A DNA stretch of 39,060 nt from an uncultured Dehalococcoidales bacterium. Lineage in GTDB: Bacteria; Chloroflexota; Dehalococcoidia; Dehalococcoidales; JAUYDJ01. Under the pieces are notes generated by a model, which made no database searches, was not told the origin of the DNA, and was given only the letters and a program-made list of their open reading frames with translations. Below are positions 7,695 to 39,060 of this stretch, one piece after another (position 1 is the first letter of the stretch; each line of letters begins with the position of its first letter). The stretch covers positions 1 through 39,060 of the forward strand of contig CAYFGR010000004.1 of assembly GCA_964343135.1 (NCBI GenBank), read 5' to 3'. The position numbers and the translations under genes are program-made.

Positions 7695-7723
7695 CCTCCA
7701 GTAAAGGAAAACGTAGAACCGGT

Positions 7724-8302: not shown

Positions 8303-8303
8303 G

Positions 8304-16908: not shown

Positions 16909-16919
16909 AAGGTGCGACC

Positions 16920-21383: not shown

Positions 21384-21402
21384 CTTGGAAAGGGAGTAAA
21401 TT

Positions 21403-21837
21403 GTGGTTGAAATGTTTGAACCCAAGGTTGTTGCCTTTTGCTGTCATTATTGCGCTTATTCGGCGGCCGACCTCGCCGGTTCTATGAGATTGGAGTATCC
21501 ACCTAATGTTCGCGTCGTAAAGACAATGTGCACGGGCAACATAGACCCCGCTTATCTGTTAAAGGCCTTTGAGGAGGGTGTCGACGCGGTTTTTGTAGCT
21601 GGCTGAGAGGAAGGCGATTGTCATTTCCTGGAAGGAAATCTGAGGGCGAAAAAGCGGGTTGAGCAGGTAAAAACACTGTTGCGAGAGGCCGGTCTTGAAG
21701 ATGACCGAATTGAAATGTACAACATTGGCGCATCCGATGCGGTACAGTTTGCCGCAGCCTGTAACGAGATGACAGAAAGGGCAAGAAGTTTGGGCCCCAA
21801 TCCTTTAGGAAAGAGGGAGGAGGCAGAAATAGTATGA
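21403..21837 (+). CDS. mvhD: MvhD/FlpD iron-sulfur subunit, selenoprotein (TGA 21604-21606 = Sec)
   Basis: FCCHYCAYSAADLAG...MCTG...VFVAG-U-EEGDCHFLEGN...LGPNPL; frame stays open to TGA 21835-21837, overlapping the metV ATG. Confidence 0.93.
21607..21640 (+). promoter_or_regulatory. Bacterial SECIS element
   Basis: Hairpin ATTTCCT-GGA-AGGAAAT (21623-21639), starting 16 nt after the in-frame UGA, with G in the apical loop. Confidence 0.7.
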
Positions 21838-22558: not shown

Positions 22559-23663
22559 ATGGATTTCAGGCAAATACCAGAACTAAGAATAGGTAATTTG
22601 GAGTCAAGAATACCAATTGTTCAGGGAGGGATGGGCGTTGGCATTTCTTTATCCGGTCTAGCTTCGGCGGTGGCTAATGAGGGCGGTATTGGTGTTATTT
22701 CCGCGGCGGGAATCGGTATACTGGAATCTGACTTCTATGGTAACTTCAAAGGAACCAACAAGAGAGCCTTGCGAAGAGAAATAAAAAAGACAAGAGAAAT
22801 GACAGCGGGGGTTATTGGTATTAACATAATGGTAGCCCTTTCAGATTATTATGACCTTCTGTAAGTTGCATTGGACGAAGGCGCGGATGTGGTTTTTCTT
22901 GGCGCCGGACTGCCATTAAAGATGCCGAAAACACTACTACCGGATAGCTCAGGGAAAGCGGCGGTTAAGGTTATTCCGATAGTATCTTCTGCCCGGGCGG
23001 CAAAACTGATATTCCAATATTGGGGGCGGAACTACAATCATGTACCTGATGCCGTGGTTGTTGAAGGCCCATTAACTGGGGGGCATCTCGGATTTAAGCA
23101 GGAGCAGATTAATAATCCTGACTACACACTGGAAAAAAATACTGCCGGAAGCAATCTCGGTGATAAGGCCGTATGAGCAACATTATGATAGGAGTATCCC
23201 AATTATCGCTGTCGGAGGGGTATATACCGGCGCCGATGTACGCGAATTTATCCAATTAGGCGCTCAGGGAGTACAGATGGTAACTAGATTCGCGGTAACT
23301 CACGAATGTGATGCCTCCACGCAATTTAAGGAAGCATATATAGAGTGCAAAAAAGAGGACCTTACTATTATTGATAGCCCCGTTGGATTGCCGGGAAGAG
23401 CCATAAAGAACCGGTTTCTTGAGAAGATAGTTGCGGGAATTAAGAAACCAATCAAATGCCCCTGGAAGTGTCTGAAGACCTGCGATGTTGATAGTTCGCC
23501 GTACTGCATTTGTGCTGCCCTGACTAATGCCAAAAAGGGCATACTTGAAAAAGGATTCGCCTTTGCCGGGGCTAGTACCTATCAGATAGATAAAATAATC
23601 TTCGTTAGAGAGCTTATTAAGACGTTACTAATGGAATATAAAAAGACAGCTGCCATTGGATAA
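22559..23663 (+). pseudogene. Nitronate monooxygenase / FabK-like flavoprotein, disrupted
   Basis: PIVQGGMGVG, GAGLP, VEGPLTGGHLG, SPVGLPGRA; in-frame TAA 22862-22864 and +1 frameshift in A7 tract 23133-23139. Confidence 0.9.
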
Positions 23664-23864: not shown

Positions 23865-24665
23865 TCACGACTGAGCTATCGGCAGGTTAAATACCCGGAC
23901 AGGGTTTTCATAAACTACTTTACTAACTTCGGTATCAGAGAAGCCCAGTTTTCTCATTTCCAGGGCAACCTTGGGCACCGTTAATACATCCGCCGAGACT
24001 CGTAAAGCAGTGTCGCTATCAACCATCACCCGGTCGAGAGGAGCCTCCTTCAATATTCTGGCGGCATCCTCAGGGTCGAGTTTGCGCCAGGGTTGTACCG
24101 TTATTTCTGCGATACAACCAAAATCTATAATATCTCGTAGAATTTCACCGTCAGCATGACTGATGATTACCTTTTCTTTATCGAGTCCAAATTCTTTTAT
24201 TCTCTTGAAATGCTTGTCCAGCCAGCTTTTCTTGTCCATTGGGGGAGTGTGAAGACGAACCGGTACATTGTGTTCACTGACTACCTTTAGCTGCGCTCTT
24301 AATACCTCTTCCTGCTTATTAATGTCGGGGTACGTAAATGACCGGGGGTCTACCCCTATTTCGCCAATACCAACGACTCCATTCTTTTCCAGATACCTGG
24401 GAAGTGCCGCAACTACTTTTTCCCAATCGGGAGGGATGCACAACATATTAATTCCGATGGTAACAAAGGCATCAATTAGAAACTCGGACCCCCTCGGCAC
24501 ATCCCAGCTAAAGGTGCGGTCGTAAAATTCCAGCACCCACTGTGCTGATGGCGCCGGCAGCGGACCGGCATCGGCAATTACAGCTACGATACCAGCTAAA
24601 GCCATTGATTTAAGATGCGCCCGGTTAACCGAGTCCATGTGAATGTGTGGGTCGATCATCTTCAT
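23865..24665 (-). CDS. TatD-like metal-dependent hydrolase
   Basis: IDPHIH, GIGEIG, LHTP, SHAD, VDSD; RBS AGGAGG. Confidence 0.88.
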   Translation of the reverse strand: MKMIDPHIHMDSVNRAHLKSMALAGIVAVIADAGPLPAPSAQWVLEFYDRTFSWDVPRGSEFLIDAFVTIGINMLCIPPDWEKVVAALPRYLEKNGVVGIGEIGVDPRSFTYPDINKQEEVLRAQLKVVSEHNVPVRLHTPPMDKKSWLDKHFKRIKEFGLDKEKVIISHADGEILRDIIDFGCIAEITVQPWRKLDPEDAARILKEAPLDRVMVDSDTALRVSADVLTVPKVALEMRKLGFSDTEVSKVVYENPVRVFNLPIAQS

Positions 24666-24685
24666 GGTGCTACCTCCTTTTGGGT

Positions 24686-25858
24686 CTAGTTTTTGGTCCT
24701 GTTTTCAGGCTGTTTCGGCTGTATCTCGACTCCAGATTTCAGAGTCATACGAGGCGTAAGTAATAGGTTCCCCTTAATTGTGGTATTCACAGAATCAACA
24801 AAGGTAAAATCCCCTCCGGATGGTTCTAAAATAGTGATGTCAGCCGGCATACCTGTGCGGAGGCTGCCTCGCCGGTGTTCCTCGCCTAAGGCGCGTGCCG
24901 GGTTAACAGTGGTAGTCTCAATCACCTTTTCTAAGCTCATTCCCAGGGCAAGAAATGCCGACATTATCCGGGTTAAAGCCAGACCGGGGAAGGGAAATAT
25001 GGTACTGATGTCAGTGCTGAGTGTGCTGGGGAAAATACCCATGTCCAGCACTTTTCGGGCTATACTGAAGCTGAGATTCCCGGAACCTTGCGCCAAATCT
25101 AAAATTACCCCTCTCTCAATAGCCTCTTTAAGCTCGGAGAGCACACTGCCATCCGGTTTGATAGCCTGACCCATTTTCGGGGTGTAAATATGGACAAGGA
25201 TATCTCCTTTATTCAGGAGGGACAGCACTTCTCTGGTAAGAGATTCCATCATCTCCTCAGAAGCATTTTCGGCAGGGTCCTTGCCGATATGTACCACGAG
25301 AGGAACACCAGCTTCGGCAGCAATTTCTTTACCGAGTTTTACGAGTTGAACTCCATATTTCTCGGCTACTGCCGCCACCGCTCGCACCTTGACGCCTTTC
25401 ACCTGCCGCCGGTTTTCCGCTATTGTTTTTAGCGTAGCCGGGGCGTCTACCTCATAATGATTCCAGTCCTCCGGCAGAGTGGTCTGTCCGGTAGGGTGTA
25501 GTGCCAGAAAGCAAAAAACGTCTGTTTTGGCTCGCTGAATAATAAGCTTATTAAATTCAGTGAAGTTAGCGGGGCCGGTACTGCCACCATCACATACCGT
25601 AGTTACTCCGGAGAAAACGCCATCTTCTTCCGGGTCAACTCCAAACGGGGTTAGTCCCCCGGTAACGTGAGCATGAATATCAATGAGTCCGGGAGTCACT
25701 ATCTTACCGGTAGCATCAATTTTCCGTTTTGTCTGATTGGAATCGATGTTTGGAGCCACAGATGCTATTTCGCCTTGGTAGATAGCGATATCACTCTGAC
25801 CGTAAATACCCTGAGCGACATCGATTACTTTTCCCCCCTGCACCAGCAGGTCATACAT
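24686..25858 (-). CDS. Amidohydrolase (dihydroorotase-like / deacetylase family)
   Basis: PGLIDIHAHV, GVTTVCDGGS, GVKVR, VVHIG, LVHIY, LSTD, TVNPA. Confidence 0.9.
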   Translation of the reverse strand: MYDLLVQGGKVIDVAQGIYGQSDIAIYQGEIASVAPNIDSNQTKRKIDATGKIVTPGLIDIHAHVTGGLTPFGVDPEEDGVFSGVTTVCDGGSTGPANFTEFNKLIIQRAKTDVFCFLALHPTGQTTLPEDWNHYEVDAPATLKTIAENRRQVKGVKVRAVAAVAEKYGVQLVKLGKEIAAEAGVPLVVHIGKDPAENASEEMMESLTREVLSLLNKGDILVHIYTPKMGQAIKPDGSVLSELKEAIERGVILDLAQGSGNLSFSIARKVLDMGIFPSTLSTDISTIFPFPGLALTRIMSAFLALGMSLEKVIETTTVNPARALGEEHRRGSLRTGMPADITILEPSGGDFTFVDSVNTTIKGNLLLTPRMTLKSGVEIQPKQPENRTKN

Positions 25859-25937
25859 TTTAATTCTCCCTGAAATTACATTCGGTATGTTGAGACAGGC
25901 GTAATTTCTACTTGGCGGAATGGATTGTACGCCGTGC

Positions 25938-27857
25938 TTAGAGGGATAAACCGGTGCTGAGAGCGGTTGCCATTGCTTCAGTTACTAATCCCGGCTTCAT
26001 CGCATCGCCGATGAGATAGACATCGGGGAAAACTCCCTCTAGCAGCCGGTAGAGTTCCCTATTCGGTTTTCGACCAGTTGCCAGCACTATGGTATCCGCC
26101 GGTATGGTATGTTTTCCGGTCTTGTCCCTGACGACTACGCCGTCTTCAGTAATCGCCGCCACCTCTGTGTCAGTTTGCACGTTAACTTTACATTTCTTTA
26201 GAGCGTCCAGCATTGCTGACCTGACCGTAGATGGCATTAGTTCCTTTGCCACTGTCTCCAGCATTTCGACGACGGTCACCCTTCTCCCCTGCTGAGCGAG
26301 ATGGTGAGCAGTTTCACACCCGGTCATGCCACCGCCGATAATGACCACGTTCTCACCTACCCGGGTCCTGCCGGTAAGTATAGTCTCATTTAAAGATACA
26401 TTGTCGTTATCGATGCCGGGGATTTCGGGCGGTGCCTCACGGCTACCGGTAGCTACGATGACTACATCGGGGCTAATCTCTTTGAGTGCCGGTAAGCTGA
26501 TATTATTATTGAGCACTAAATTAACACCGAGCTTCTGATTCTGATATATCAGGTACCTCCTGAGTTTTTCCATGAGTTCTTTATTCGGTGTGATGGCAGC
26601 CAGAATCAATTGTCCTCCCAGTACAGCTTCCTTTTCGTAGAGGGTTACATCGTGACCTCTCTCCGCGGCAATCCGGGCTGCCTCCAGCCCGGCAGGGCCA
26701 CCCCCGATTATTACGACATTTCTCACTTTCTTAGCGCGTGTAATGGTGGATTCCTTCTCTTTTCCGGCACAGGCATTAACCGTGCAGGTCACCGGAGTAT
26801 CATAGTACGCAAGGCAATCCCGACAGGAGGAGTCGCGAACGCAGGGCCTGATGTCCTCTAATCGACCTGCCGCCACTTTCAAGGGTAACTCCGGGTCGGC
26901 AAGCAAAGCCCTACCCATAGCTACCAAATCCGCCTTATTCTCGAGCAGGATTTTCTCCCCAAGTTTAGCATCTATCCCTCCCGACGCTATCACGGGACAT
27001 CCCGCCACTTTCTTTATCTCGCTGGTAAATTCAACGAAGTATCCCGGTGGGGTATAAAATGACCGAGCCGGCGGTACACCGGAAACATGAATCGCATCCA
27101 ACCGGCTGTTCCGAAGGATTCCAACCAATTCCTTGGTTTCCTCAAGAGTAATACCGTCTTCCAGACCGGTTTCCTCAGCGCTGAGCCGGCACCATACTGG
27201 ATAACTGGTTGTGACTGCCCCCCTTACGGCTTCAATAACTTCCAGCAGGAATCTAGCCCTGCTTTTCAAATCACCACCGTAAACATCCTGGCGTTTATTC
27301 TTAGCGGCGGACAGGAATTGTCCGATAAGGTAGCCGTGAGCGGCATGTATTTCCACACCATCGAATCCGGCTTTTTGCGCTCTGCCGGCCGCCTGGGCAA
27401 AAAATTGCACCACGCTTGATATTGCGGCAGGAGTTAATCCCTCGGGCATTTCTTTGCGTGTCGATTTTATGTAGGCATCCTTGTAAGCGAGGGGTGATGA
27501 CGATACTGGGGGAAGCGGCGTAAGATCTTGCCGGGAAACACTCCCGCCATGATGAAGTTGAAGGGCTGCCTTGACGCCGTGCCGGTGGATAGCTGCCACC
27601 AATCGGCCCATGCCTGGAATGTATCTATCATCATCTATAGAAAGTTGCCTGAGCCAGCATTTATTACGGCTCAGGTCGATACTGGTCGCCTCGACGGTGA
27701 TTAGCCCTACCCCACCCTTAGCTCGTTCTTCATAGTAGGCGATTACCTTGTCGCTAACATAACCTTCTTCAGCGCCATAATTAACTACCATCGGCGCCAT
27801 TACAATGTGGTTATTTAGTTCCATTGTGCCTAATTTGTAAGGCTTCATGAGCCGCAT
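25938..27857 (-). CDS. NADH:flavin oxidoreductase (OYE barrel plus FAD/NAD module; FadH/enoate-reductase-like)
   Basis: VMAPM, EIHAAHGYLIGQFLS, GRALLADP, GGGPAG, GGGMTG; start at ATG 27857 after a G-rich RBS. Confidence 0.92.
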   Translation of the reverse strand: MRLMKPYKLGTMELNNHIVMAPMVVNYGAEEGYVSDKVIAYYEERAKGGVGLITVEATSIDLSRNKCWLRQLSIDDDRYIPGMGRLVAAIHRHGVKAALQLHHGGSVSRQDLTPLPPVSSSPLAYKDAYIKSTRKEMPEGLTPAAISSVVQFFAQAAGRAQKAGFDGVEIHAAHGYLIGQFLSAAKNKRQDVYGGDLKSRARFLLEVIEAVRGAVTTSYPVWCRLSAEETGLEDGITLEETKELVGILRNSRLDAIHVSGVPPARSFYTPPGYFVEFTSEIKKVAGCPVIASGGIDAKLGEKILLENKADLVAMGRALLADPELPLKVAAGRLEDIRPCVRDSSCRDCLAYYDTPVTCTVNACAGKEKESTITRAKKVRNVVIIGGGPAGLEAARIAAERGHDVTLYEKEAVLGGQLILAAITPNKELMEKLRRYLIYQNQKLGVNLVLNNNISLPALKEISPDVVIVATGSREAPPEIPGIDNDNVSLNETILTGRTRVGENVVIIGGGMTGCETAHHLAQQGRRVTVVEMLETVAKELMPSTVRSAMLDALKKCKVNVQTDTEVAAITEDGVVVRDKTGKHTIPADTIVLATGRKPNRELYRLLEGVFPDVYLIGDAMKPGLVTEAMATALSTGLSL

Positions 27858-28061
27858 CTTTGCCACCCCCCTTGTAAACGGAAAAATCCTAGCCTGCCGG
27901 GGTGTTTTAATATATTGAAAACATGGCACACCGGTGGCCTGTAGTCTCCAGAAAAGCAAAGAAAAAGGTAATGTTTTGCCTCAACCGATTACCGTTATCA
28001 CTCATCCATTCTTTTAGCGTAGTGATGCCAAAAGAAAATGACCGTTTTCACCGCTGATAGG

Positions 28062-28535
28062 TTAATTATCCTGCCTTTTACGTAATTCCGCCGCCCGCAG
28101 TACTGATTCAATTATCTGCTCGTAACCGGTGCATCTACAGAGATTACCCTCTAAGGCATCTTTTATCTCGTCAATGGTGGGGTCGGGATTTACGTCAAGC
28201 AAGGCTTCCGTGGTTAGAATTATGCCCGGGGTGCAATAGCCGCACTGGAAGCCATTGTTTTCGACGAATGCCTGTTGTACTCCATCTAATTGACCTTCTT
28301 TGGAAATGCCCTCAAGTGTAATAACGTCAGTGCCATTTACCTGTACCGCCAGCAACAAACATGACCTTACCGCTTTCCCATTCACCAGAATAGTACAGGT
28401 TCCGCAGGCGCCTTCATCACAACCTCTTTTAATGCTGGATAATCCGGTGGTGTCCCTCAGCACATCAAGCAGAGTTGCCCCCGGTTCTACATCTTGTTCG
28501 ATGGGTTCACTGTTGAGTTTATAACGTACAATCAT
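28062..28535 (-). CDS. Xanthine dehydrogenase family [2Fe-2S] small subunit
   Basis: GCDEGACGTC...C, QCGYCTPG, NLCRCTGY. Confidence 0.94.
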   Translation of the reverse strand: MIVRYKLNSEPIEQDVEPGATLLDVLRDTTGLSSIKRGCDEGACGTCTILVNGKAVRSCLLLAVQVNGTDVITLEGISKEGQLDGVQQAFVENNGFQCGYCTPGIILTTEALLDVNPDPTIDEIKDALEGNLCRCTGYEQIIESVLRAAELRKRQDN

Positions 28536-29407
28536 TATTCACCACGTCCTAATTGATTTAAAGCTCTCCTGGTTAAAACATACGCCATTTCAGTACGGTA
28601 TTCCGCCGTCGCTCGGACGTCGGTAATCGGACAACACTGTTCCCTAACCAGATGAGCGGCTCGGGTTATGTTCTCCTCATTGACGGCGTAACCGGTTAAT
28701 GCGTCTTCAACCCGGTTTACTCTGATTGGCGTAGGCGCCACGGCACCCAAGGCTACCCTGACCTCCGTAAATTTACCTTCCTTCACATTGACAAAGGCGG
28801 CTACCGAAGCTACGGAAAGGGTAAAAGCCTTACGCCGGCCAAACTTGATGAAAGTAGACGAGCCCTCATGCAGGGGGATAATAATTTCAGTCAATATCTC
28901 ATCCGGTTTAACAATTGTTTGCTCGGGACCCACGAGAAATTGACTGACAGCAACGATCCTTTCCGCGTCCGCACTCTGTAACTTCACGGATGCATCGAGA
29001 ACCAGCAGCGCCGGAGCAGTGTCGGCGGCGGGAGAGGCATTACATATGTTACCCGCAACTGTAGCCCGGTTCCGGAGTTGTGACGCCGCCAGAACATGAA
29101 TTGCTTTAGCGAGCGCCGTCACCTTTTCCTTTACAACTGACGATACCTCAATATCAGCCAGTCTGGTTAGTCCTCCGATACGAAGGTTATTATCAACTAA
29201 TTCGATAAACGATAATTCGGCAATATTGTTTAAATCGATGATTACTTCGGGGGAGACCGTCCGTTTTTTCATTTTTAGTAGCAGGTCGGTGCCCCCGGCG
29301 AGTAATCTCGCCGTTCCCTGATGCTCTTTGACCAGCTCAAGCGCTTCCGCCAGTGAAGATGGCGCATAATAGCTGAAATTTTGTATCGGTCTTAGTTCAG
29401 TTATCAT
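28535..29407 (-). CDS. Xanthine dehydrogenase family FAD-binding medium subunit
   Basis: AGGTDL, RNRATVAGNICNASPAAD, GAVAPTP, DVRATAEYR. Confidence 0.94.
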   Translation of the reverse strand: MITELRPIQNFSYYAPSSLAEALELVKEHQGTARLLAGGTDLLLKMKKRTVSPEVIIDLNNIAELSFIELVDNNLRIGGLTRLADIEVSSVVKEKVTALAKAIHVLAASQLRNRATVAGNICNASPAADTAPALLVLDASVKLQSADAERIVAVSQFLVGPEQTIVKPDEILTEIIIPLHEGSSTFIKFGRRKAFTLSVASVAAFVNVKEGKFTEVRVALGAVAPTPIRVNRVEDALTGYAVNEENITRAAHLVREQCCPITDVRATAEYRTEMAYVLTRRALNQLGRGE

Positions 29408-31724
29408 TATTTTTTTCCTTTATCGCGAAACAGATTTTTTCTCTATCTAACGGTATCTCATTAAACCTGATTCCCGTGGCATTATGTATTGCGTGGATAA
29501 TTGCCGAAGGCGTTGATATTAAGGCAATCTCTCCGACCCCCTTTACGCCAAAGGCGGAGTACTTGTACTCGTCTTCCACACTGGTGACCGGCGCCATTAC
29601 TGGCTTATCTTTTATTGTTGGTATCAGGTAATCAGTATAGGATGGATTAAGAATCCGGCCGCCTTCTCTCTGAACAAACTCAGTGAGGGTGAACCCCATC
29701 CCCATCACGCCGCAGCCGTAAGCTTGACCCCGGACAATCTCGGGCTGAACTATTTTTCCCGCGGCAACCCCGGGATACATTTTCAGAACGTCCACTTCTC
29801 CTGTCTCAATATCCACATCCACCTCAACAAAAGTGCAACCGAAGGTATAGGCGGCGTAAGGATCACCTTGTCCTGTCTCGGGGTCAGGGTAACCTCTTCG
29901 CGCCAGTATAAAGCCGAATTCGGCGGGGGAATATCCCCTCATGTACATCTCGAAGGCAAGGATCTGGAAATTTATTTTGGTGGAATTATTGTTGATATTA
30001 AAGGCTTTGCCATCCTCGATTGCTACTTCTTCAACTTTGCAATTGAGTAAATCGGCGGCTACTCGGTTGAGGTTTCTTCTCAGCTTTAAAGCAGCGTCCG
30101 CCGCTGCCGTGCCGCCAATGAAGGTACCCCGCTGACCATGTGTCTCGCCGCTGTCTGGCATTTTACTGGTGTCATTTATCTCAGTCCGTATCCATTCGAA
30201 CGGAATTCCCAATATTTCCGCCACCATCATGACATGAGAGGTAATTGTCCCCTGGCCTAACTCCACGATGCCGGTGGCATAGGTGACACTACCGTCACTA
30301 TTGATGATTACTGAAGCACCGGCCCAGTCTTTCTTAAATCCGGTAGTACCGCAGGCGTGCCAACTGAGCCCAACACCAATACCCCTCCGCTTGCTACCTG
30401 ATTTATAGTTCTGGCATTCGGCTCTCTTTTTTGTCCATTCCACATTTTGCGCCATTGTAGCGAGCAGTTCTTTAATGCCTACTGAGTGGTCTAAAAGCTG
30501 GTTTGTGCCCGTCCTTGAGCCGGGAACCAGGGCATTTTGAAGTCGGAATTCTACGGGGTCAATCTTCAGCTCTTCAGCCAGTATGTTCATTTGAGATTCA
30601 GCGGCGAAGAGCATCTGTGGATTCCCAAAGCCATTATAAGCTGAATTAGGCAGGTTATTAGTGTAGACGGATTTACCTCTAATCTTGACGTTAGGCACCT
30701 CGTAGACACCGGTTGCATGATAGGCAGCTCTTTTCATTATACCCAGAGTCTGTGTTGAGTATCCCCCCGCCTCAACAGTATAATCGACCTCGATTGCCTT
30801 CAGCTTGCCATCTTTCGTGGTACCGGTCTTGTATTTAATATCGAAGAGAGACCGATTATAGCGATAGGCAGCTGACTCATGCCTGGTAAAAATCATCATT
30901 ACCGGCTTGCCAAGACGGACGGCTGCCACTGCCGGTAAAGCACAGATTATGGGACCGTAGGCATCCTTGCCGCCGAAACCACCGCCCAGCGGCGGAGTAA
31001 TTATGGTAACGGCGGATTCTTCCCAGCCTAGAATTGCCGCGACATTGGATTTAGTCCGGAACGGGTTCTGGGTAGTCCCGATAATGGTGACCCGACGGTG
31101 ACCGGTGGGGATGGCAATGGCGGCCTCCGTCTCCAGATAGGCGTGATCCTGAGAGCCGGTATGATAGGTTCTCTCTATAATCACATCGCACTCTTTAAAG
31201 GCTTTGTCGGTATCTCCTTTAGTGATTTTTACCGTTCCCGCGATATTTCCCTCTTTATGTATTTTAATATCACTGTTTACGGCTTCTTCAGGGTTAAAAA
31301 TTGCCGGTAATTCCTGATAGTCAACCTTGAGCGCATCAACACCTTGCCAGACAGCCTTTTCATCTTTTGCCACGATTAAAGCTACGATATTCCCGATGTA
31401 TCTTGCCTTATCTGTGATTAACGGCTGGTCCGGCAGCATATATACCACTTTGTTAATACCCGGTATGTCCTCACTTGTCAGCACTGCCACAACGCCGGGT
31501 ATGCAAAGGGCTGATTCCTTATCAACTCGCTTTACAATGGCGTGGGGATAAGGGCTTCTGACCACTTTTGCCACCAGAGCCTTATCAATCACGTAATCAG
31601 CCGTATATTGCATCATGCCGGTAACTTTATCTACGGCATCGACCCGCTTGACATTAGTTCCGACAACGGTGTAACTGGAACGGTGCAATACCTTCTTTAT
31701 TTCCTCAAGATACTCGATGTGCAT
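29397..31724 (-). CDS. Xanthine dehydrogenase family molybdopterin-binding large subunit
   Basis: RSPYPHA, QDHAYLE, GGGFGGK, AYNGFG, ELGQG, KGVGE; RBS GGAGGAG. Confidence 0.94.
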   Translation of the reverse strand: MHIEYLEEIKKVLHRSSYTVVGTNVKRVDAVDKVTGMMQYTADYVIDKALVAKVVRSPYPHAIVKRVDKESALCIPGVVAVLTSEDIPGINKVVYMLPDQPLITDKARYIGNIVALIVAKDEKAVWQGVDALKVDYQELPAIFNPEEAVNSDIKIHKEGNIAGTVKITKGDTDKAFKECDVIIERTYHTGSQDHAYLETEAAIAIPTGHRRVTIIGTTQNPFRTKSNVAAILGWEESAVTIITPPLGGGFGGKDAYGPIICALPAVAAVRLGKPVMMIFTRHESAAYRYNRSLFDIKYKTGTTKDGKLKAIEVDYTVEAGGYSTQTLGIMKRAAYHATGVYEVPNVKIRGKSVYTNNLPNSAYNGFGNPQMLFAAESQMNILAEELKIDPVEFRLQNALVPGSRTGTNQLLDHSVGIKELLATMAQNVEWTKKRAECQNYKSGSKRRGIGVGLSWHACGTTGFKKDWAGASVIINSDGSVTYATGIVELGQGTITSHVMMVAEILGIPFEWIRTEINDTSKMPDSGETHGQRGTFIGGTAAADAALKLRRNLNRVAADLLNCKVEEVAIEDGKAFNINNNSTKINFQILAFEMYMRGYSPAEFGFILARRGYPDPETGQGDPYAAYTFGCTFVEVDVDIETGEVDVLKMYPGVAAGKIVQPEIVRGQAYGCGVMGMGFTLTEFVQREGGRILNPSYTDYLIPTIKDKPVMAPVTSVEDEYKYSAFGVKGVGEIALISTPSAIIHAIHNATGIRFNEIPLDREKICFAIKEKNNDN

Positions 31725-31803
31725 CTTACTCCTCCAAGCAATGTCTTTAAATCCAGCAGCTGACTTTACCCTCTGTCTCGTCGTCTTCTTCTCAAACGGT
31801 AGT

Positions 31804-31832
31804 ATTATAACACGCTAGTGCCTTGCCGTCTA
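31804..31832 (-). promoter_or_regulatory. sigma70 promoter of the Mo-hydroxylase operon
   Basis: Minus strand TAGACG-17 bp-TATAAT with extended -10 TG. Confidence 0.6.
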
Positions 31833-32232
31833 ATAAATAATTGAATATAGCGATTCGATAAACAAACTCTCTATTAAGGACGAAAATACAGTAGAGATGA
31901 ACTCATCACTTATCATAATTTACCGTCCTTATGTCGATGAGCCGGGGACTACAGTTGAAAACAGATGGTAGTATGACGAAGGAGTACAGGGGGTCGGTTG
32001 CGTTGAAGGATAGTGAGGAGCTTTATTCTGATATGCCAGGTTGAAAGATACGGCAGGTGTGAGATATAGTTTGCCATTTGGAGGTCCAGATGGAATTGAG
32101 AAGGGACTGGAGTAATCATCCTAGGTATTGCTGGTGTTGTCGCCACCATTAATATTCTGGTAAGATAACCCATGCAAGTGACGACAGTCTGGAATCTGGC
32201 GATTTTGGACTGTAAGGTAAAGGTGATAGAAA

Positions 32233-33519
32233 ATGGTGGACTTAAGTCTGGAACTGGCGGGTGTGAAGCTGAAGAATCCACTTGTATGTGGTGCCGGTCC
32301 AAACACCAAGAACTTTCCCACAGCCGTCAGTTGCATAAAGGCTGGCTTTGGGGCTATCGTCGTCCGCAGCCTCCACCAGCAACATCTGAACGAATTGACA
32401 CCGCCATTTAGGGAATTCTGGCACATATACGGCGGCGGTAGAGACTTCACCAAATCACTGTATTCTTTTCAATCAACCGGGGCACCGGCGCGGCGCGTTA
32501 ACACCGGTGTTGCCCCCGGCTTCGGAGGTGCCGTACCGTTACCGGAGCGGGAAGAATGGGCTGAGGAAGTGCACAAGATAACACGCGTTGCCCAAAATTA
32601 CGGTTGTGCCGTAATCGCCAGCATTGGCTGGTGTGGCAGTAATCTATCCGATGAAGAACTATGGAAAGTAGAAGCTAGGTTGATGACCGAAATTGGCGTA
32701 GATGCTCTTCAGTTGCATACGGCACCCAGTCCTGCTACCGAACCCGGTAGATATATGACAATTGCCCCCCAAAAATACCTGGGGATGCCGATTAAAGCCG
32801 CCAAGGCGGTAAGTCACCTGCCGGTTTTTGTCAAACTTCCCGTTGATTGCTGCGATACGATTACCATGGCCAGTATTGCCCAAAAGGCAGGCGCCGATGG
32901 AGTAGTTCCGGTTACCCGTTGGGTATCGCTTCCGGTTGACATCAACCACGAGAGGGAACCAGTCTGGAGAGCCCCTGGTATTGGTGGCCCCTGGTCGGCA
33001 CCCATCATGAATGGTCTCGTTTTCCGTATGCGCCACGCCCCACAACCTATCGGCTATCTGTTTGGGGAATCAGCCGATCAGTTCCCGGAGGCGGTGCCGG
33101 TGACCGTACCCATTGTACCCTCCGGGGGAGTCAGGTCTGGTGCCGATGTAATCGGCTACATTGTCGCCGGTGCTAATGCTGCCGAGGTGTGCGCCCAGAT
33201 TATTATTGAAGGACCGGGCGTGGCTGGTCGTATCGTAAGAGAGATTAATGACTGGATGGCAGGGAAAGGCTACACGAAAATCGCTGATTTTCAGGGCATT
33301 CTAAGGCTATTGGAGCCAGCACGGGCAAAGGATATCCCCCAGTGGCTGCCCGTGGTGGACGAAAATTTGTGCAATGCCTGCATGGACTGCATCAGGGGGT
33401 GCTCGAACCAGGCAATCTCCCTGGTGGAACAGGTTGCCCACGTTAAAGAGACTCGCTGTGAAGGCTGTCGCAACTGCTACAACATCTGCCCTACCTACGC
33501 GATATCCCTCAAAGATTAG
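32233..33519 (+). CDS. Dihydroorotate/dihydropyrimidine dehydrogenase (PreA)-like FMN protein with C-terminal 2x[4Fe-4S]
   Basis: LKNPL..GAGP, PVFVKL, GADGV, SGGVRSGAD, AGANAAEV; CNACMDC..GC and CEGCRNC..ICP. Confidence 0.85.
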   Translation: MVDLSLELAGVKLKNPLVCGAGPNTKNFPTAVSCIKAGFGAIVVRSLHQQHLNELTPPFREFWHIYGGGRDFTKSLYSFQSTGAPARRVNTGVAPGFGGAVPLPEREEWAEEVHKITRVAQNYGCAVIASIGWCGSNLSDEELWKVEARLMTEIGVDALQLHTAPSPATEPGRYMTIAPQKYLGMPIKAAKAVSHLPVFVKLPVDCCDTITMASIAQKAGADGVVPVTRWVSLPVDINHEREPVWRAPGIGGPWSAPIMNGLVFRMRHAPQPIGYLFGESADQFPEAVPVTVPIVPSGGVRSGADVIGYIVAGANAAEVCAQIIIEGPGVAGRIVREINDWMAGKGYTKIADFQGILRLLEPARAKDIPQWLPVVDENLCNACMDCIRGCSNQAISLVEQVAHVKETRCEGCRNCYNICPTYAISLKD

Positions 33520-33595
33520 AATACGTTATTAGCCACCAGCCACATCTGGTGGGTGAGTTTAACAGGGAACTGAACAAGAAAGGAAGTAATTCAGC

Positions 33596-34537
33596 ATGAG
33601 ATTGGTGACTTTTGAGACTGCCACTAATGGCGAGAGGCTTGGCGCACAGGTGGGTGACCATATTATTGGCCTGGCATTGGGTAGCGAAGCTTACCAGACC
33701 GCGACCGGGGACAAAATCTCTGTATTTTCTTCTGACATGATGACATTTCTGGACCAGGGTGGTGCCGCCATAAGTGCTGCCCGAAAGGTGATAGAGTGGG
33801 TCAGCCGTCAGATGGAAAAGACCGGGAGAGTTACAACCGTCTCAGGTGACCCGGTATTCTACAATCTTGACCAGGTTCGTCTTCGTGCGCCCGTGCCCCG
33901 GCCACCCAAGATTTTGTGCCTCGCACTCAATTATCGGGCACATGCTGCCGAGGGTAAAATTGTTATGCCCGAGAAGCCTTATGTCTTCATAAAACCGGGC
34001 ATATGGCCCGTAATGGGGCCGAATGATAAGGTCATTCGTCCCACTAAGAGCCAGAACTTCCTTTATGAGGGTGAGCTTGCCGTTGTCATCGGCAAACGTT
34101 GCCGCCATGTGTCGAGCGAAAGAGCCTATGAGGTCATTGCCGGCTATACAGTTGTCAATGACATATCGGCGCGTGACCTGGGCAAGACGAATATACCAGG
34201 ACTGGTTGATTGGTTTCGAGCTAAAGCTTTCGATACATCGCTACCCATGGGACCCTGCTTAACCTTGAAGGATGAGATTGACGACCCTCATAATCTTCGG
34301 CTGACCGTACGCGTTAACGGGCAGACAGTGCAGGACGCGTCTACGTCCGAGATGGCCTTCTGGATTCCAGAGTTAATTGAGTTTATCTCCGAGTTTATTA
34401 CGCTCGACGCCGGTGATATTATTGCTACCGGTACACCGGGAGGTTCTACCACTGCCCTGAAGGCTGGAGACCGGGTGGAGGTGGAAATCACTAAAATAGG
34501 CGTACTGACCAGCATCATTGTCGATGAAGATAGATAG
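33596..34537 (+). CDS. Fumarylacetoacetate hydrolase family protein
   Basis: CLALNY, YEGEL, NDISARD, KAFDT..PMGP, GDIIATGTPGG. Confidence 0.92.
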   Translation: MRLVTFETATNGERLGAQVGDHIIGLALGSEAYQTATGDKISVFSSDMMTFLDQGGAAISAARKVIEWVSRQMEKTGRVTTVSGDPVFYNLDQVRLRAPVPRPPKILCLALNYRAHAAEGKIVMPEKPYVFIKPGIWPVMGPNDKVIRPTKSQNFLYEGELAVVIGKRCRHVSSERAYEVIAGYTVVNDISARDLGKTNIPGLVDWFRAKAFDTSLPMGPCLTLKDEIDDPHNLRLTVRVNGQTVQDASTSEMAFWIPELIEFISEFITLDAGDIIATGTPGGSTTALKAGDRVEVEITKIGVLTSIIVDEDR

Positions 34538-34654
34538 ATACATACATACGAGCGGAGATAGTCCATCAACCAACGCTACGCCGTAGTCTTCTTAAATCAT
34601 AGCCTTATAGCAAATAAGATTTATTTCAGAAAGTTAATAATTCTTACTTTAGTA

Positions 34655-34683
34655 TTGACACAAAGGGGAAAAAACATTATAAT
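34655..34683 (+). promoter_or_regulatory. Perfect-consensus sigma70 promoter of the TRAP operon
   Basis: TTGACA-17 bp-TATAAT. Confidence 0.75.
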
Positions 34684-35023
34684 CCGTCCTAGTTTAGGGC
34701 GTTTTATTTATGAAGTACTTGCGGTCGTGTAAAACAGGGTCGGGTGCGGTAAAGAATATACTGTTAAGTATTTTTAATGTTATATAGAACGAGAGAAGAC
34801 GTGTGGGGGTTTCGAATTAATCACGAGAAAGACTGAAGCGCCTTTTTTATGTTATGCTATAAATCCACTAATTTGTAGAGAATATATAAGCTGGTAGCAT
34901 ATGGAATAAGAAATAACGATGACTTCGATTATATATAATAGAAAGATAGAAAGGGGGTGATTTGCAGGATAATAGTAGGAATACTAACTAAAGCAGCAAA
35001 AATACCCAATAGGAGGGAGAGAG

Positions 35024-36136
35024 ATGAAGAGAAAGATAGTATTTTTCAGTTTAATTGCAGTACTTCTGGCATTACCTCTGGTGGCTTGTGCTGAGCCCAC
35101 ACCGGCTCCAGTGCCAGCACCGGCACCCAAACCAGCACCGGCACCCAAACCAGCTCCAGCACCGGCTAAAGCCAAGGCTGAAGCCCCGGCTGAAGTCATC
35201 ACCTTGACTATGGATACGGCTGCCGATGGGACATATGTAACCAATCCCTATCCGCGATTTCAAAAGTGGGTAGAGCAAGCAACTGGCGGACGGATAAAAA
35301 TTAAGACAACGGTAGAAATGCTCGATGACCCCATGATTGGTGCCGTTGAAGGACGGGTTGACATCGGCTACCAGCGGCAAGCCTGGAGCGCTGGGACCTT
35401 TCCTCTCTGGGACATCAGTACCTTCCCATTTTTCTGGAACGACTCACACGAATACGAGGCAGCCATGTGGGACCCGCGGCTTGTTTCAATATTTGATAAG
35501 TCATATGGGGAAGCTGGCCTGGTCAGGATGTTTGAAGGACCGTCTGGCGCCATGGAGATTATTTACAGTAATAAAAAATACCCGACGTTACAAAGTTTAC
35601 AGGGAGCAAAACTCAGGGCAGCCAGTATGACAATCGTGTGGTCCATGCAGATGGCAGGGCTCGCACCATTACGTATGCCCCCTTCCGAACTTATTGACGC
35701 CGTCAGGCTGGGCACGGTGGATGGTATTCATACCAACCGGGCTTACGGCATGGAAATAGGGCTTATCGACGTTGTCAAATATGGCAGCCTGTGGCCGTTC
35801 AGCTCAGATTTTATGCAGGTATTTATCATGAACAAGGACAAGTTTGATTCACTGCCTGCCGATCTGCAATCAATATTAAAGGATGTATTCCTTGAAATGA
35901 ACGGGCAATCATTTGTGGGGGGACACGAGGCCAGGCTTGTTGCGATAAGCGCCTTCAGGTCGACTAATGTAGAAATTATAACTCCTGAGAAGGCAGAAAT
36001 AGACAAAGTCGTATCACTGTTGGTACCCGGCCTCTTTGATAAGTGGGTTGAGAATGCCGGTCCGCAAGCGGCAGAAGTTCTGTCTATCTTGACCGAGTAT
36101 GCTACCGGACCCGCCGCTGTTGCGCTACGTAAGTAG
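35024..36136 (+). CDS. dctP: TRAP transporter substrate-binding lipoprotein (DctP-type) with Pro/Ala-rich tether
   Basis: Lipobox LVAC, PAPAPK repeats, TGGRIKI, QGAKLR, GTVDG, FDSLPADLQ; followed by dctQ and dctM. Confidence 0.88.
   Translation: MKRKIVFFSLIAVLLALPLVACAEPTPAPVPAPAPKPAPAPKPAPAPAKAKAEAPAEVITLTMDTAADGTYVTNPYPRFQKWVEQATGGRIKIKTTVEMLDDPMIGAVEGRVDIGYQRQAWSAGTFPLWDISTFPFFWNDSHEYEAAMWDPRLVSIFDKSYGEAGLVRMFEGPSGAMEIIYSNKKYPTLQSLQGAKLRAASMTIVWSMQMAGLAPLRMPPSELIDAVRLGTVDGIHTNRAYGMEIGLIDVVKYGSLWPFSSDFMQVFIMNKDKFDSLPADLQSILKDVFLEMNGQSFVGGHEARLVAISAFRSTNVEIITPEKAEIDKVVSLLVPGLFDKWVENAGPQAAEVLSILTEYATGPAAVALRK
35114..35167 (+). repeat. 18-bp tandem repeat encoding the PAPAPK linker
   Basis: CCAGCACCGGCACCCAAA twice plus a degenerate copy. 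Confidence 0.8.
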
Positions 36137-36146
36137 TATACTAGTG

Positions 36147-36218
36147 GCACAGGTAGCACAGGTAGCACAGGTAGCACAGGTAGCACAGGTAGCACAGGTA
36201 GCACAGGTAGCACAGGTA
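36147..36218 (+). repeat. Perfect 9-bp VNTR (GCACAGGTA)x8 between dctP and dctQ
   Basis: Eight exact copies, flanked by ACTAGT at 36140-36145 and 36220-36225. Confidence 0.97.
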
Positions 36219-36280
36219 AACTAGTAATAGGGGAAGCTAAGATTAAGCGATTAGGTCACGTCATTGAGGGTCTGGCCAGC

Positions 36281-36757
36281 ATGCTCGGCTATATCGCAGG
36301 GTGGTTGGTGCCAATTATGATGGTGCTCGTACTGGTGGAGGTATTCTCCAGGTATGTGGTGAACCGACCACTTATGGTGGCTGACGAGTTTGGCGCCTAC
36401 CTGTTGGTGGCTGTCTCCTACCTTGCGGCAGCCTACGCCTGGAAAGAAAAGGGGCATGTTCGTATCACTGTCCTGGTTAGTAGGCTGCCGCTAAGGATAT
36501 CAAACCGGTTAAGGCTGATAACCCTTTTGCTGGCGCTCATCGTTGCCATTGGACTAAGCCAGTCAGCTTACAGCTATCTGCAAACTTCCTTCAAATTAAA
36601 TATGGCATCCGGTTCATGGTTACACTTTCCCCTGCAGGGCCCCCATATGACCCTGATGATTGGCTTCGCCCTTCTGACCCTGATACTAGCGGTAGAGTTT
36701 ATCCGAGCCATAATGAATCTCCGTCGAGGTGAAAGAGTTGAGGAGGAGAGTAGATGA
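36281..36757 (+). CDS. dctQ: TRAP small permease (true start may be ATT 36242)
   Basis: EVFSRYV, ADEF..YL, GHVRIT; 4 TM segments. Confidence 0.88.
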   Translation: MLGYIAGWLVPIMMVLVLVEVFSRYVVNRPLMVADEFGAYLLVAVSYLAAAYAWKEKGHVRITVLVSRLPLRISNRLRLITLLLALIVAIGLSQSAYSYLQTSFKLNMASGSWLHFPLQGPHMTLMIGFALLTLILAVEFIRAIMNLRRGERVEEESR

Positions 36758-38049
36758 GCCTGGAGTTAATAACTATTTTCCTTCTAGGCGGCCTGCTTCT
36801 TCTGTTGATTATTGGGACGGAAATCTTCGTGGCGATGGCGATAGTGGGCGGTCTCGGGCTATGGTTTATTGTTGGGCAAGGTCCGGGTCAATTTGCCCGG
36901 ACCGCCTTTTTATTCATGGATTCATTTGTTCTTACCGCCATGCCGCTTTTCATATTTATGGGTTCGATATTTGCCAATACCGGCATCACCCGGTATCTCT
37001 TCACCGGCGCCGATAAAATTCTTGGTGGTTTACCCGGAGGTGTGGCCTGTTCCGTCATCGGCGCTGCTGGCGTCTTTGGCGCTATAGCTGGCTCCACGGT
37101 AGCCTCCGCGGCTACTTTCGGCAAGATTGCCTACCCTGATATGGAAAGATTGGGCTATCACCCCAGGCTGGCCCTCGGCTCAATAGCCATAGGGGGCACT
37201 CTGGCCGTTCTTATCCCGCCCAGTATCATTCTGATTGTCTATGGTTTCTGGGAAAGGGTTTCCGTAGCCAAGCTCTTCGCCGGTGCCATAATACCCGGGA
37301 TAATACTGGTATCACTCCTCGTACTTACGGTTATCGTGCAGGTGAAGCTCAAGCCTAGCATGGCACCAAGTCCACCTAAAATTACCTGGCGGGAAAGACT
37401 ATCGGCGGTAAAGGATATAACACCATTTGCGATAGTCATAATTACGGTATTGGGGGTGATTTTCGGAGGTGTTATGACCCCTACTGAAGCGGCCTCCCTG
37501 GGCGCTCTCGGCAGCATTGTTCTCGCCCTGGCATACCGGAGAATGACCTTCGTCGCGCTTAAAGAAAGTATGTGGAGCACGGCGAAGATAACATCAATGA
37601 TTGCCTTTGTCATCTTCACGGCCAAGGTACTAGGCATACTCTTTGCCCAGATAGGGCTTACCGAGTTATTCGCCGCCTTTATGACAGACCTGCCTTTCGG
37701 CAAGTATGGTATATGGGTCGTTGTCTGTGTAATGTACCTTATCATGGGCATGTTCTTTGATACCATTTCCATGCTGCTACTGACCCTTCCCTTTATCAGC
37801 CCGCTTATGGCGGAGTTAGGTTTTGACCCCATCTGGTTTGGCGTAACTTATGTGGTGCTAGGTGAGATTGGGATAGTTACCCCGCCCTTCGGTTTGAATC
37901 TGTTTGTTCTCCATAGTGTTGTTCCCAAGCACGATATCATGGTCATTGCCCTCGGTGCTCTACCTTTCGTGATTCCGACACTGCTTATGGTAGTGGTACT
38001 GACGGTTTTCCCCCAGCTTGTCCTGTGGTTACCCCGCCTACTCTACTGA
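36754..38049 (+). CDS. dctM: TRAP large permease
   Basis: AMPLFIFMG, GTLAVLIPPS, TPTEAA, DPIWFG, TPPFGLNLF. Confidence 0.93.
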   Translation: MSLELITIFLLGGLLLLLIIGTEIFVAMAIVGGLGLWFIVGQGPGQFARTAFLFMDSFVLTAMPLFIFMGSIFANTGITRYLFTGADKILGGLPGGVACSVIGAAGVFGAIAGSTVASAATFGKIAYPDMERLGYHPRLALGSIAIGGTLAVLIPPSIILIVYGFWERVSVAKLFAGAIIPGIILVSLLVLTVIVQVKLKPSMAPSPPKITWRERLSAVKDITPFAIVIITVLGVIFGGVMTPTEAASLGALGSIVLALAYRRMTFVALKESMWSTAKITSMIAFVIFTAKVLGILFAQIGLTELFAAFMTDLPFGKYGIWVVVCVMYLIMGMFFDTISMLLLTLPFISPLMAELGFDPIWFGVTYVVLGEIGIVTPPFGLNLFVLHSVVPKHDIMVIALGALPFVIPTLLMVVVLTVFPQLVLWLPRLLY

Positions 38050-38224: not shown

Positions 38225-39060
38225 TTAAGTCTCGGTGGTACTCTTCGCTTTCTCAAACTCTCGTTTCATCCTCTCGAGTTCTATAGAAAGTCGCTCCCAT
38301 TCCTCAATGAGCGAGCTTATAACTTTCTTCAGTCGGTGATGTTTCTCGATGGTGGCGATGACCCGCGCGCTAACCCCATAATACCCTTCATCGGAAAACA
38401 AGCTCTCAACCTCTCTGAATTGTTGCTCAAACTTCGAAAGCTTAGCCTCGATTTCAGCTATTCGCTTTCTGGTGGGGGCACTCTCCCGGGAATACTTATT
38501 CCTTAGTTCCGCCTCGATTAGCTTACGCTGGCGCGGTCTATTATTTGTCGCACTTTTCCCGATAACCAGGGAGACCGGCACTTCGGAAATCTCGGACACT
38601 CCCTGTCCCAAAGACTCCTTCCAATTGAGGTAGTCATCATAATTTCCGGTTAATACGTACAGGTTGCCATCCTTTATCTCGATGATCTTATTGGCAATCT
38701 GGCGAATTAGCGTCCGGTCGTGGGTGATGAAACAAAGGCTTCCGCGATAGGCTTCCAGGGCATCGGCCAGTATCTCCCGCGAGGCAATGTCAAGGTGGTT
38801 AGTCGGCTCGTCCATCAGCAACATATTGGCTGATTGCACCAGCATCTTGGTTAGCACCAGACGGCTCTTCTCACCGCCGGAAAGGACGGATATTTTTTTA
38901 TAGACATCATCACCGCTGAAGAGAAAGGCGCCCAAAATCTTCCTTAGTTTCTGTTCCGGTTCATCTGGAACTGTGTTCTGCAATTCAGTAAGTATATTAT
39001 TTGTCGGATCGAGAAGCTCAAGCTGGTACTGGGCATAATAGGCAGTGATGACATTATGCC
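38225..39060 (-). CDS. ABC-F family ATP-binding protein (partial; 5' end outside window)
   Basis: Frame open to the window edge (AYYAQ); [25 protein letters not shown]-terminal coiled coil. Confidence 0.92.

Follow-up and report, generated by a model that had tools for sequence, protein, structure and literature searches.

The question raised by the divergent eleven-gene cluster at positions 23865–38049 of contig CAYFGR010000004.1 (C4 of its genome), from an uncultured Dehalococcoidales bacterium, is whether its putative molybdenum hydroxylase, reductases, hydrolases and importer constitute a single catabolic pathway. The window, i.e. the whole stretch of 39,060 nucleotides that was analysed, belongs to a genome of 1.01 Mb that is 70.6% complete; the names of its homologues and the marine, seawater and vent metagenomes containing the sequence agree with a marine member of the order. 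Leftward, the cluster codes for the large, medium and small subunits of a xanthine dehydrogenase (XDH) family enzyme (XdhLMS), a reductase related to old yellow enzyme (OYE), an amidohydrolase and a TatD-like hydrolase; rightward, it codes for a PreA-like flavoprotein, an enzyme of the FAH family and a TRAP importer (DctPQM). According to the open reading frame (ORF) listing and Pfam/NCBIfam scans, all eleven genes lie where the original prediction had placed them, belong to the families it named and appear intact. That prediction had read them as one undescribed route for the anaerobic catabolism of an N-heterocycle with its own TRAP importer, and had staked this on conserved synteny; the full set was found together in no other locus examined. 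Its observation stands, its interpretation in part. We lean slightly towards reading the locus not as one conserved pathway but as three units that differ in evolutionary history and form a patchwork; its catabolic logic is of a known kind, and its parts are two conserved but uncharacterised units plus local additions.

The separate histories became apparent when the neighbourhoods of the two conserved parts were compared. A genome scan with an alignment of orthologues yielded 13 loci with a PreA-like gene at 42–64% identity (next best match, 30%), from Dehalococcoidales, Desulfobacterales and other Deltaproteobacteria, Aerophobetes and Family XIII; the loci span at least four phyla. The FAH gene adjoined the PreA-like gene in 11 of the 13 loci and dctPQM was present in six, TAXI-TRAP, MFS or ABC transporters taking its place at other PreA-like/FAH loci, while XDH, OYE, amidohydrolase and TatD genes were found at none of the 13. 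For XdhLMS, seven loci were compared, six from 401 sampled Desulfobacterota genomes and one (genome G001) from 362 other genomes of the same order. The L-M-S gene order was kept in all seven (identities: L, 63–71%; M, 52–67%; S, 63–65%), and none of them contained an OYE, amidohydrolase, TatD, PreA-like or FAH gene of the window type. Whole genomes gave the same picture: five genomes with the PreA-FAH pair had no XdhL match above 34% identity, and five genomes with an XdhL orthologue had PreA-like matches of just 27–33% and, in two cases, amidohydrolase matches of 33–34%. In G001, which belongs to the same family as the bacterium studied here, XdhLMS (65–70% identity) is followed by a different TRAP importer, and the best OYE and PreA-like matches reach 38–39% and 31%, respectively. 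XdhL orthologues at E ≤ 1e-200 were found in none of 401 genomes in the class of genome G435, and none above 39% identity was found among 400 sampled genomes of the class Dehalococcoidia. The clades also contrast in size, with 108 of the 120 XdhL clusters among the matches listed showing at least 58% identity, whereas 57% or more is reached by just eight OYE clusters. Identity to the window proteins is 52–88% for the close OYE homologues and 70–95% for the closest XdhL homologues. What was directly observed is the gene content, the intactness of the motifs and which genes are conserved as sets, and the separate inheritance of the units gives the locus the look of a patchwork, not of one fixed pathway. 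Literature searches for these gene combinations, within the library searched, returned no paper.

A single route through all eleven genes, in which one carboxylated N-heterocycle would be taken up by the TRAP importer, hydroxylated by XdhLMS, reduced by the OYE protein and/or the PreA-like protein, opened as a lactam by the amidohydrolase and finally cleaved at a C-C bond by the FAH enzyme, is unlikely in our judgement. The divergent, compact arrangement of apparently intact enzymes would fit such a route, as would the short identical pieces of genes of both halves in one RNA library and the recurrence of an XDH enzyme, a DHOD/Fer4 reductase and a carboxylate transporter around orthologous XdhLMS and around 8 of 66 distant PreA-like loci; the comparisons just described, 0/13 and 0/7 loci and negative at the genome level, argue against it, as do the occurrence of the PreA-like/FAH pair beside four types of transporter at loci that lack XDH genes, the need for two ring reductases in one route, the perfect promoter consensus that dctP has of its own, an amidohydrolase that is not enamidase-like, and a TRAP importer that is nearer to a paralogue in its own genome than to the importers of orthologous PreA-FAH loci.

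Several points weigh against the patchwork reading in turn. Only seven XdhLMS loci were seen, two of them without upstream sequence, and a conserved XDH–OYE–amidohydrolase operon may exist in close relatives, the contigs of the eight close OYE homologues lying outside the loci compared. A member of an OYE cluster and an XdhL homologue both occur on longest contigs of 7647 bases, for which about 0.3 coincidences are expected by chance (estimate). With its shared control region of 508 bp, the divergent arrangement may reflect joint regulation of the two halves in this organism. In the NCBIfam scan no enzyme of the cluster reached any equivalog cut-off. Finally, ring opening by the window amidohydrolase is a guess, since its closest solved homologue, 2ogj, is reportedly a deacetylase devoid of dihydroorotase activity (PMC4987910). 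The 7647-base coincidence and a second one at 5842 bases (a PreA-like and an XdhL homologue) were rejected as a proxy for synteny, about 0.3 and one to two such cases, respectively, being expected by chance; moreover, the 5842-base XdhL fragment does not fit the divergent layout because its N-terminus is absent.

The first unit consists of XdhL (29397–31724, minus strand; 775 aa; Pfam Ald_Xan_dh_C, MoCoBD_1 and MoCoBD_2), the molybdopterin-binding large subunit, XdhM (28535–29407, minus strand; 290 aa; FAD_binding_5 and CO_deh_flav_C), the FAD-binding medium subunit, and XdhS (28062–28535, minus strand; 157 aa; Fer2 and Fer2_2), the small subunit with two [2Fe-2S] clusters, whose Cys patterns were read directly in the sequence. 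The molybdenum cofactor-binding, FAD-binding and double [2Fe-2S] domains are all complete. XdhL and XdhM overlap by 11 nt, the XDH genes overlap each other and the subsequent three genes follow at gaps of 20–204 nt, so that all six leftward genes seem to belong to a single operon. Homologues of XdhL come from Deltaproteobacteria/Thermodesulfobacteriota, Chloroflexota, Acidobacteriota and three archaeal metagenome-assembled genomes (MAGs). Alignment to 1rm6_A and 3hrd_A showed that XdhL keeps a Gln ('TTQNPF') that we take to lie at the Mo site, the GGGFGGK motif and a presumably catalytic Glu ('GVGEIAL'); Asp stands at the position of bovine E802, and Asn replaces the Arg of the 'AFRGFG' motif. 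The idea that the cluster contains several non-canonical active sites therefore holds for these two changes in XdhL and for the PreA-like protein (see below), and does not extend to the Gln and the Glu.

XdhL scored below all NCBIfam equivalog cut-offs (best, XdhA, 513 bits vs 780; pucD, 488 vs 784), and these scores, together with the Asp at the purine-binding E802 position, speak against a xanthine dehydrogenase proper. Its best single PDB chain was 4-hydroxybenzoyl-CoA reductase (4-HBCR; 308 bits, 1.8e-90); this enzyme was rejected as an assignment at 433 bits vs a cut-off of 995 for TIGR03194 and 131 vs 405 for TIGR03195. By summed chains, the closest solved relative of XdhL was the nicotinate dehydrogenase (Ndh) of Eubacterium barkeri (3hrd_A, 281 bits, plus 3hrd_B, 173 bits). 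An enzyme of the E. barkeri type, with split large and medium molybdopterin chains, was also rejected, the single 775-aa chain of XdhL covering both 3hrd_A and 3hrd_B.

The surroundings of orthologous XdhLMS genes are informative with respect to the substrate. Directly upstream in three of the seven loci lies a DHOD/Fer4 protein of the canonical PreA type, which keeps K574, N668, C671 and N736 of pig dihydropyrimidine dehydrogenase (DPD); UbiD decarboxylases were found at two loci, CN_hydrolase and DUF2848 at one, and carboxylate transporters at three (a TTT transporter at one, TRAP at two). Given a pyrimidine-type reductase, a C-N hydrolase, an aromatic-acid decarboxylase and carboxylate importers as neighbours, a carboxylated N-heteroaromatic compound is the best guess for the substrate. 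XdhLMS belongs to a widespread Mo-hydroxylase clade of anaerobic sediment lineages and most likely hydroxylates a carboxylated, probably N-heteroaromatic, ring next to the heteroatom. This reaction, like all others discussed here and the substrate class itself, is one that we infer. A second, paralogous set of XDH L/M/S genes (30–34% identity) adjoins the orthologous XdhLMS genes in three of the seven loci (L228, L229 and L230, all from Desulfobacterota).

The proposed sequence of hydroxylation, reduction and hydrolysis has precedents. According to the parts of PMC9304392 available, nicotinate fermentation by E. barkeri proceeds by Mo-dependent hydroxylation, partial ring saturation and hydrolytic C-N opening by enamidase, and the nicotinate route of Aspergillus nidulans employs the Mo-hydroxylase HxnS, HxnT (an alkene reductase related to OYE), the cyclic imidase HxnM and the amidase HxnN. 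The order of chemistry proposed for the left operon is that of the E. barkeri route with its Ndh, 6-hydroxynicotinate reductase and enamidase; the two Ndh chains, scored as a sum, give XdhL its nearest solved relative. The differences are that the L/M pair is split in E. barkeri, that the reductases of the window are of the OYE/FAD and DPD-like types, and that enamidase (2vun) was not among the PDB matches of the window amidohydrolase at E ≤ 1e-5; a B12 mutase or other downstream E. barkeri enzymes had no match among the window proteins scanned, a search that did not extend to the rest of the genome. The fungal route likewise combines an XDH-family hydroxylase, an OYE relative for the saturation of a hydroxypyridine ring and hydrolases whose substrate is the ring in its saturated form (PMC9304392, same parts). 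It differs in having two O2-dependent monooxygenases between these steps, in that HxnT is a single-domain OYE while the window protein has three domains with Fe-S and FAD, and in that HxnM belongs to another hydrolase family. The aerobic dip cluster for dipicolinate was rejected as a model on account of its O2-dependent monooxygenase. The hydroxylate-reduce-hydrolyse logic of the original prediction is thus plausible for the left operon, judging by the Ndh-like score of XdhL and the XdhLMS neighbours elsewhere; its lactam-opening step fits poorly with an amidohydrolase that does not resemble enamidase.

The genome carrying the window is rich in XDH-family genes. At least eight XdhL paralogues, 29–33% identical to the window XdhL, were found in its 1.01 Mb (loci L206–L213, on contigs C4, C52, C19, C12, C33, C31, C13 and C49). 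Aldehyde:ferredoxin oxidoreductase (AFOR), XdhL, XdhS, UbiD and Amidohydro_2 genes lie together on C19, XdhM, XdhS, M20 peptidase and FAD_binding_2 genes on C45, and TctA, FAD_binding_2 and XdhL genes on C52, and an OYE gene adjoins XdhMSL and CoxG on C33. On C13 (7316–12477, L211), genes for a CN_hydrolase, a PreA paralogue of the canonical type (402 aa) and a 904-aa protein in which XdhS and XdhL are fused follow in series, a row that we liken to the Desulfobacterota locus L230 with DUF2848, CN_hydrolase, PreA, XdhLMS and TRAP; DUF2848 itself aligned to the FAH profile with an hhalign probability of 2.3%. The presence of at least eight XDH-family loci in a genome of about 1 Mb points to a lifestyle of anaerobic hydroxylation of ring compounds.

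In a small genome so dense in XDH-family loci and in catabolic units linked to transporters, the two halves of the cluster might simply be functionally unrelated neighbours, which we regard as very improbable. The number of XdhL paralogues with their varied partners, the independent inheritance of the halves and the separate promoter consensus of dctP would all accord with this; chance adjacency is estimated at about 2% for some eight XDH loci in about 1000 genes, and elsewhere a DHOD/Fer4 reductase and a carboxylate transporter fill the analogous slots beside XdhLMS, both of which count against it.

Within the patchwork, the second unit comprises the co-oriented OYE, amidohydrolase and TatD-like genes, a trio that accompanies this XdhLMS at no other locus examined. 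The OYE protein (25938–27959, minus strand; Pfam Oxidored_FMN and Pyr_redox_2) consists of an OYE-type FMN domain, a cluster of four Cys residues and domains for FAD and NAD(P)H; the FMN barrel, FAD and NAD(P)H folds are present, and the motif HAAHGY (205–210), Cys 373/379/382/392 and two GxGxxG motifs were read directly. Since homologues span 93–96% of the query and the Pfam domain begins at residue 37, its true start is probably Met35, near 27857. The three-domain architecture is that of 2,4-dienoyl-CoA reductase (DCR), 2-naphthoyl-CoA reductase (NCR) and BaiCD, the closest PDB entries being NCR 6qkg (2.4e-84) and DCR 1ps9; the differences from this family are scores far under the equivalog cut-offs (BaiCD, 488 bits vs 825; bilirubin reductase, 432 vs 750) and the absence of a CoA-activating enzyme nearby. 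A metagenome scan with the OYE alignment returned paralogues of at most 48% identity among the matches listed, and XDH genes at none of 80 loci, a result that bears on these paralogues and not on the true OYE orthologues; two of these 80 loci contained a distant DctM (30–34% identity).

The amidohydrolase (24686–25858, minus strand; 390 aa; Amidohydro_1/3) is probably of the cog3964/PRK09237 type, scoring slightly under the cut-off of NF006689 (354 bits vs 371). Its motifs HxH 61–63, H190, H223 and D283 were read directly, as were HxH 7–9, E102, H139, H170 and D216 of the TatD-like protein (23865–24665, minus strand; 266 aa), the last gene of the left operon, which matched Pfam TatD_DNase with 57 bits and, weakly, Amidohydro_2, and whose single PDB relative was AF_1765 (3guw); we take the motifs of these two proteins and of the OYE and FAH proteins to have the metal-binding or catalytic roles usual for such residues. 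The solved structures matching the amidohydrolase were 2ogj (closest, 3.8e-50, a cog3964 protein), 8wzy, 8je0 and 2ics. Its description as cyclic-amidase-like was not borne out: dihydroorotase and hydantoinase matches cover only the N-terminal ~100–130 residues, and the corresponding equivalogs scored at most 77 bits vs cut-offs above 390. In five loci of the same order with amidohydrolase homologues of 45–51% identity, MmgE/PrpD genes lay beside the homologue in four and UbiD in two, and XDH genes in none; one genome of the order contains a co-oriented paralogous operon of OYE_FAD (34%), TAXI-TRAP and amidohydrolase (36%), and in G001 the amidohydrolase orthologue (58%) sits behind another XdhL paralogue. 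The OYE/FAD iron-sulfur protein would act as an NAD(P)H-linked ene-reductase saturating an activated C=C bond, and the binuclear-metal amidohydrolase and the TatD-like protein would contribute one or two hydrolytic steps, either ring opening or removal of an acyl or amide group.

The third unit, which appears to be independently mobile, is the PreA-like/FAH pair with the TRAP importer. The PreA-like protein (32233–33519, plus strand; 428 aa; Pfam DHO_dh and Fer4, with two 4Fe-4S motifs) is an FMN barrel with two [4Fe-4S] clusters, and its model showed the fold of DPD domains IV–V (AlphaFold pLDDT 78.1; best Foldseek match pig DPD, E 1.2e-21, TMq 0.64). Throughout the orthogroup, pig DPD K574 corresponds to R45, N668 to an invariant H162, C671 to a variable residue and N736 to an invariant R229-W230, and there are three insertions relative to DPD. 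A canonical PreA/DPD catalytic site was accordingly rejected, the catalytic Cys and the pyrimidine-binding Asn being absent and the PreA score being 118 bits vs a cut-off of 335. Such a changed pocket speaks against a pyrimidine and favours a substrate that is recognised via carboxylate or enolate oxygens. The subfamily is small and set apart, with full-length proteins at 758, 512 and 385 bits and the next at 253 bits in a library of 1.84 billion representatives; an ESM Atlas search returned generic DHOD/Fer4 clusters only. Reductive pyrimidine catabolism (PreT/PreA or DPD, dihydropyrimidinase, beta-ureidopropionase) resembles the system in the fold of the PreA-like protein and in the canonical PreA-type proteins and CN_hydrolase at orthologous XdhLMS loci; it differs in that the window PreA-like protein lacks DPD C671, N668 and N736, has FAH instead of dihydropyrimidinase as its partner and has no PreT-type partner in the cluster according to the Pfam/NCBIfam scans.

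FAH-type partners typically cleave or decarboxylate 1,3-dicarbonyl acids. The FAH enzyme of the window (33596–34537, plus strand; 313 aa; FAA_hydrolase, 224 bits) has a putative Glu-Glu-Asp metal site (E158, E160 and D189) that is invariant in eight orthologues, and its closest PDB chains were HpaG 1gtt, YisK 8sky and LRA6 8gsr. Recurrent neighbours of the pair were SDR, FAD_binding_2, IlvD/Edd, Amidohydro_2, cyclase-family and S15 hydrolase genes, as well as an OYE-like protein, and a GntR/FCD regulator was present at five of the 13 PreA-like loci. The PreA-like flavoenzyme, via its ferredoxin-type clusters, would reduce (or desaturate) a carboxylate-bearing cyclic enone, and the resulting 1,3-dicarbonyl compound would be either split at a C-C bond or decarboxylated by the FAH enzyme. 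In this genome the third unit stands where, beside orthologous XdhLMS elsewhere, a canonical PreA and a transporter for carboxylates are found, so it may serve the same substrate stream.

Alternatively, the substrates would be nitrogen-free hydroxy-aromatic or alicyclic acids, for example of the resorcylate or cyclohexenone type. XdhLMS would then be a ring hydroxylase, a dehydroxylase or a Michael hydratase-dehydrogenase, the OYE protein would reduce the ring and the amidohydrolase-superfamily enzymes would be esterases or lactonases, while on the right the PreA-like protein would be a ferredoxin-dependent ring reductase and FAH would cleave a cyclic 1,3-diketone. We consider this distinctly unlikely. 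In its favour, the top single-chain PDB matches are aromatic-CoA enzymes (4-HBCR and NCR); against it, the cluster contains no CoA ligase or CoA transferase according to the Pfam/NCBIfam scans, XdhM lacks a match of the 4-HBCR type (TIGR03195, as above) and the summed Ndh chains outscore 4-HBCR. An XDH-family enzyme of Alicycliphilus, which in the part of PMC3044224 available acts on carbonyl compounds that are alpha,beta-unsaturated, hydrating them and then oxidising the alcohol, offers a precedent in favour; a ferredoxin-dependent resorcinol reductase followed by hydrolytic cleavage is described in PMC10470551, whose available passages name no genes. The loss of the pyrimidine-binding Asn residues from the PreA-like protein, the Amidohydro_2, SDR, cyclase, OYE-like and S15 hydrolase neighbours of the PreA-like/FAH pair, and the deacetylase 2ogj (as described in the available part of PMC4987910) also fit nitrogen-free substrates, while the canonical DPD-type reductases and CN_hydrolase beside XdhLMS orthologues point to C-N chemistry.

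As a variant that we hold to be doubtful, the two undescribed anaerobic units, namely the Mo-hydroxylase clade with PreA-type reductases, UbiD and C-N hydrolases and the PreA-like/FAH pair, could be coupled into one route. The Mo-hydroxylase clade, found in sediment lineages of both bacteria and archaea, would break down a carboxylate of the pyridine or pyrimidine type, e.g. nicotinate or a spore- or algae-derived analogue, and the PreA-like protein, ferredoxin-linked and with His/Arg/Trp in place of the pyrimidine-binding residues, would, together with FAH, dearomatise and open a meta-dioxo ring acid of the resorcinol or dihydroxypyridine type. Irrespective of such coupling, the comparison defines two units, an XdhLMS clade with PreA, UbiD and C-N hydrolase partners that also occurs in Desulfobacterota MAGs, and a small PreA-like/FAH subfamily; adjacency in a single genome had overstated the case for one new pathway. 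For marine Dehalococcoidales, an abundant and uncultured group, ideas on carbon sources are largely guesswork; the substrates of both units would add steps to the anaerobic turnover of heterocycles or polyphenols in sediments.

The TRAP importer is encoded by dctP (35024–36136; 370 aa; Pfam DctP), dctQ (36281–36757; DctQ, the small membrane subunit) and dctM (36754–38049; DctM, the large membrane subunit), all on the plus strand. DctP is a solute-binding lipoprotein with a signal peptide, a lipobox ending in Cys22 and a Pro/Ala/Lys-rich linker of about 35 residues to about residue 57 (35024–35200). As had been predicted, it keeps the carboxylate-binding Arg: in 'GAKLRAAS' it aligned with its counterpart in 4n6d and 2pfy, two TRAP binding proteins. 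The importer resembles its closest paralogue, on contig C36 of its own genome (DctM, 72%; DctP, 43%), more than it does the TRAP systems of orthologous PreA-FAH loci (DctM, 49–51%; DctP, 27–32%). Neighbours of the C36 paralogue (558–8320, L214) are a B12-binding corrinoid protein, an MtmB-family methyltransferase and an aldehyde:ferredoxin oxidoreductase, which hints that a methylated amine acid is taken up and demethylated.

Both halves of the cluster carry candidate promoters. In the divergent intergenic region (31725–32232), sites matching the promoter consensus at 10 of 12 positions face both operons (31832–31804, minus strand, and 32041–32070, plus strand); these are consensus matches only. 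The gap of 486 bp before dctP contains a perfect sigma-70 consensus (TTGACA-17-TATAAT, 12/12) about 320 nt 5' of the gene, directly followed by a G+C hairpin and T-run (34655–34701, plus strand). The hairpin/T-run region may be a leader or an attenuator and had no Rfam match; at gathering thresholds, no Rfam match fell in the cluster, the sole match being a tRNA at 11019–11100 (plus strand). In two metatranscriptome runs from one sample, contigs identical to the window covered dctP and dctQ (34833–36692; 34833–36212 for dctP), beginning at 34833 and 34841, downstream of the dctP promoter consensus, and had loose ends in the repeat region of the DctP linker. Short identical pieces within the TatD, OYE, XdhS and PreA-like genes were found in the same runs. 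Contig depth was 15–117 over dctP vs 2–5 elsewhere, and parts of the cluster had no cover, differences to be read with the caveat that expression cannot be ranked from contigs and that DNA may be present in RNA libraries. In other studies, DNA runs contained the region at 99% identity or more and at about 97% identity, in short pieces only, and no metagenome or metatranscriptome contig bridged the XdhL/PreA-like junction.

The genes flanking the cluster are of other kinds. To its left, at 15479–22508 (plus strand), the window codes for an HdrC-like protein, an HdrB-like protein (CCG) and an HdrA-like fusion protein of 1511 aa that includes a DPD domain-II Fer4_20 segment; next comes a MetV-like protein with a methylene-tetrahydrofolate reductase C-terminal domain. 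A gene of the nitronate-monooxygenase family at 22559–23663 (plus strand) is split into three ORFs by an in-frame TAA (22862–22864) and a change of frame after a run of seven A (23133–23139); since a contig from a ~97% identical strain lacks one base at 23133, this frameshift may be strain-specific or an assembly error. To the right, an ABC-F family ATPase gene (38225–39058, minus strand) runs past the end of the window.

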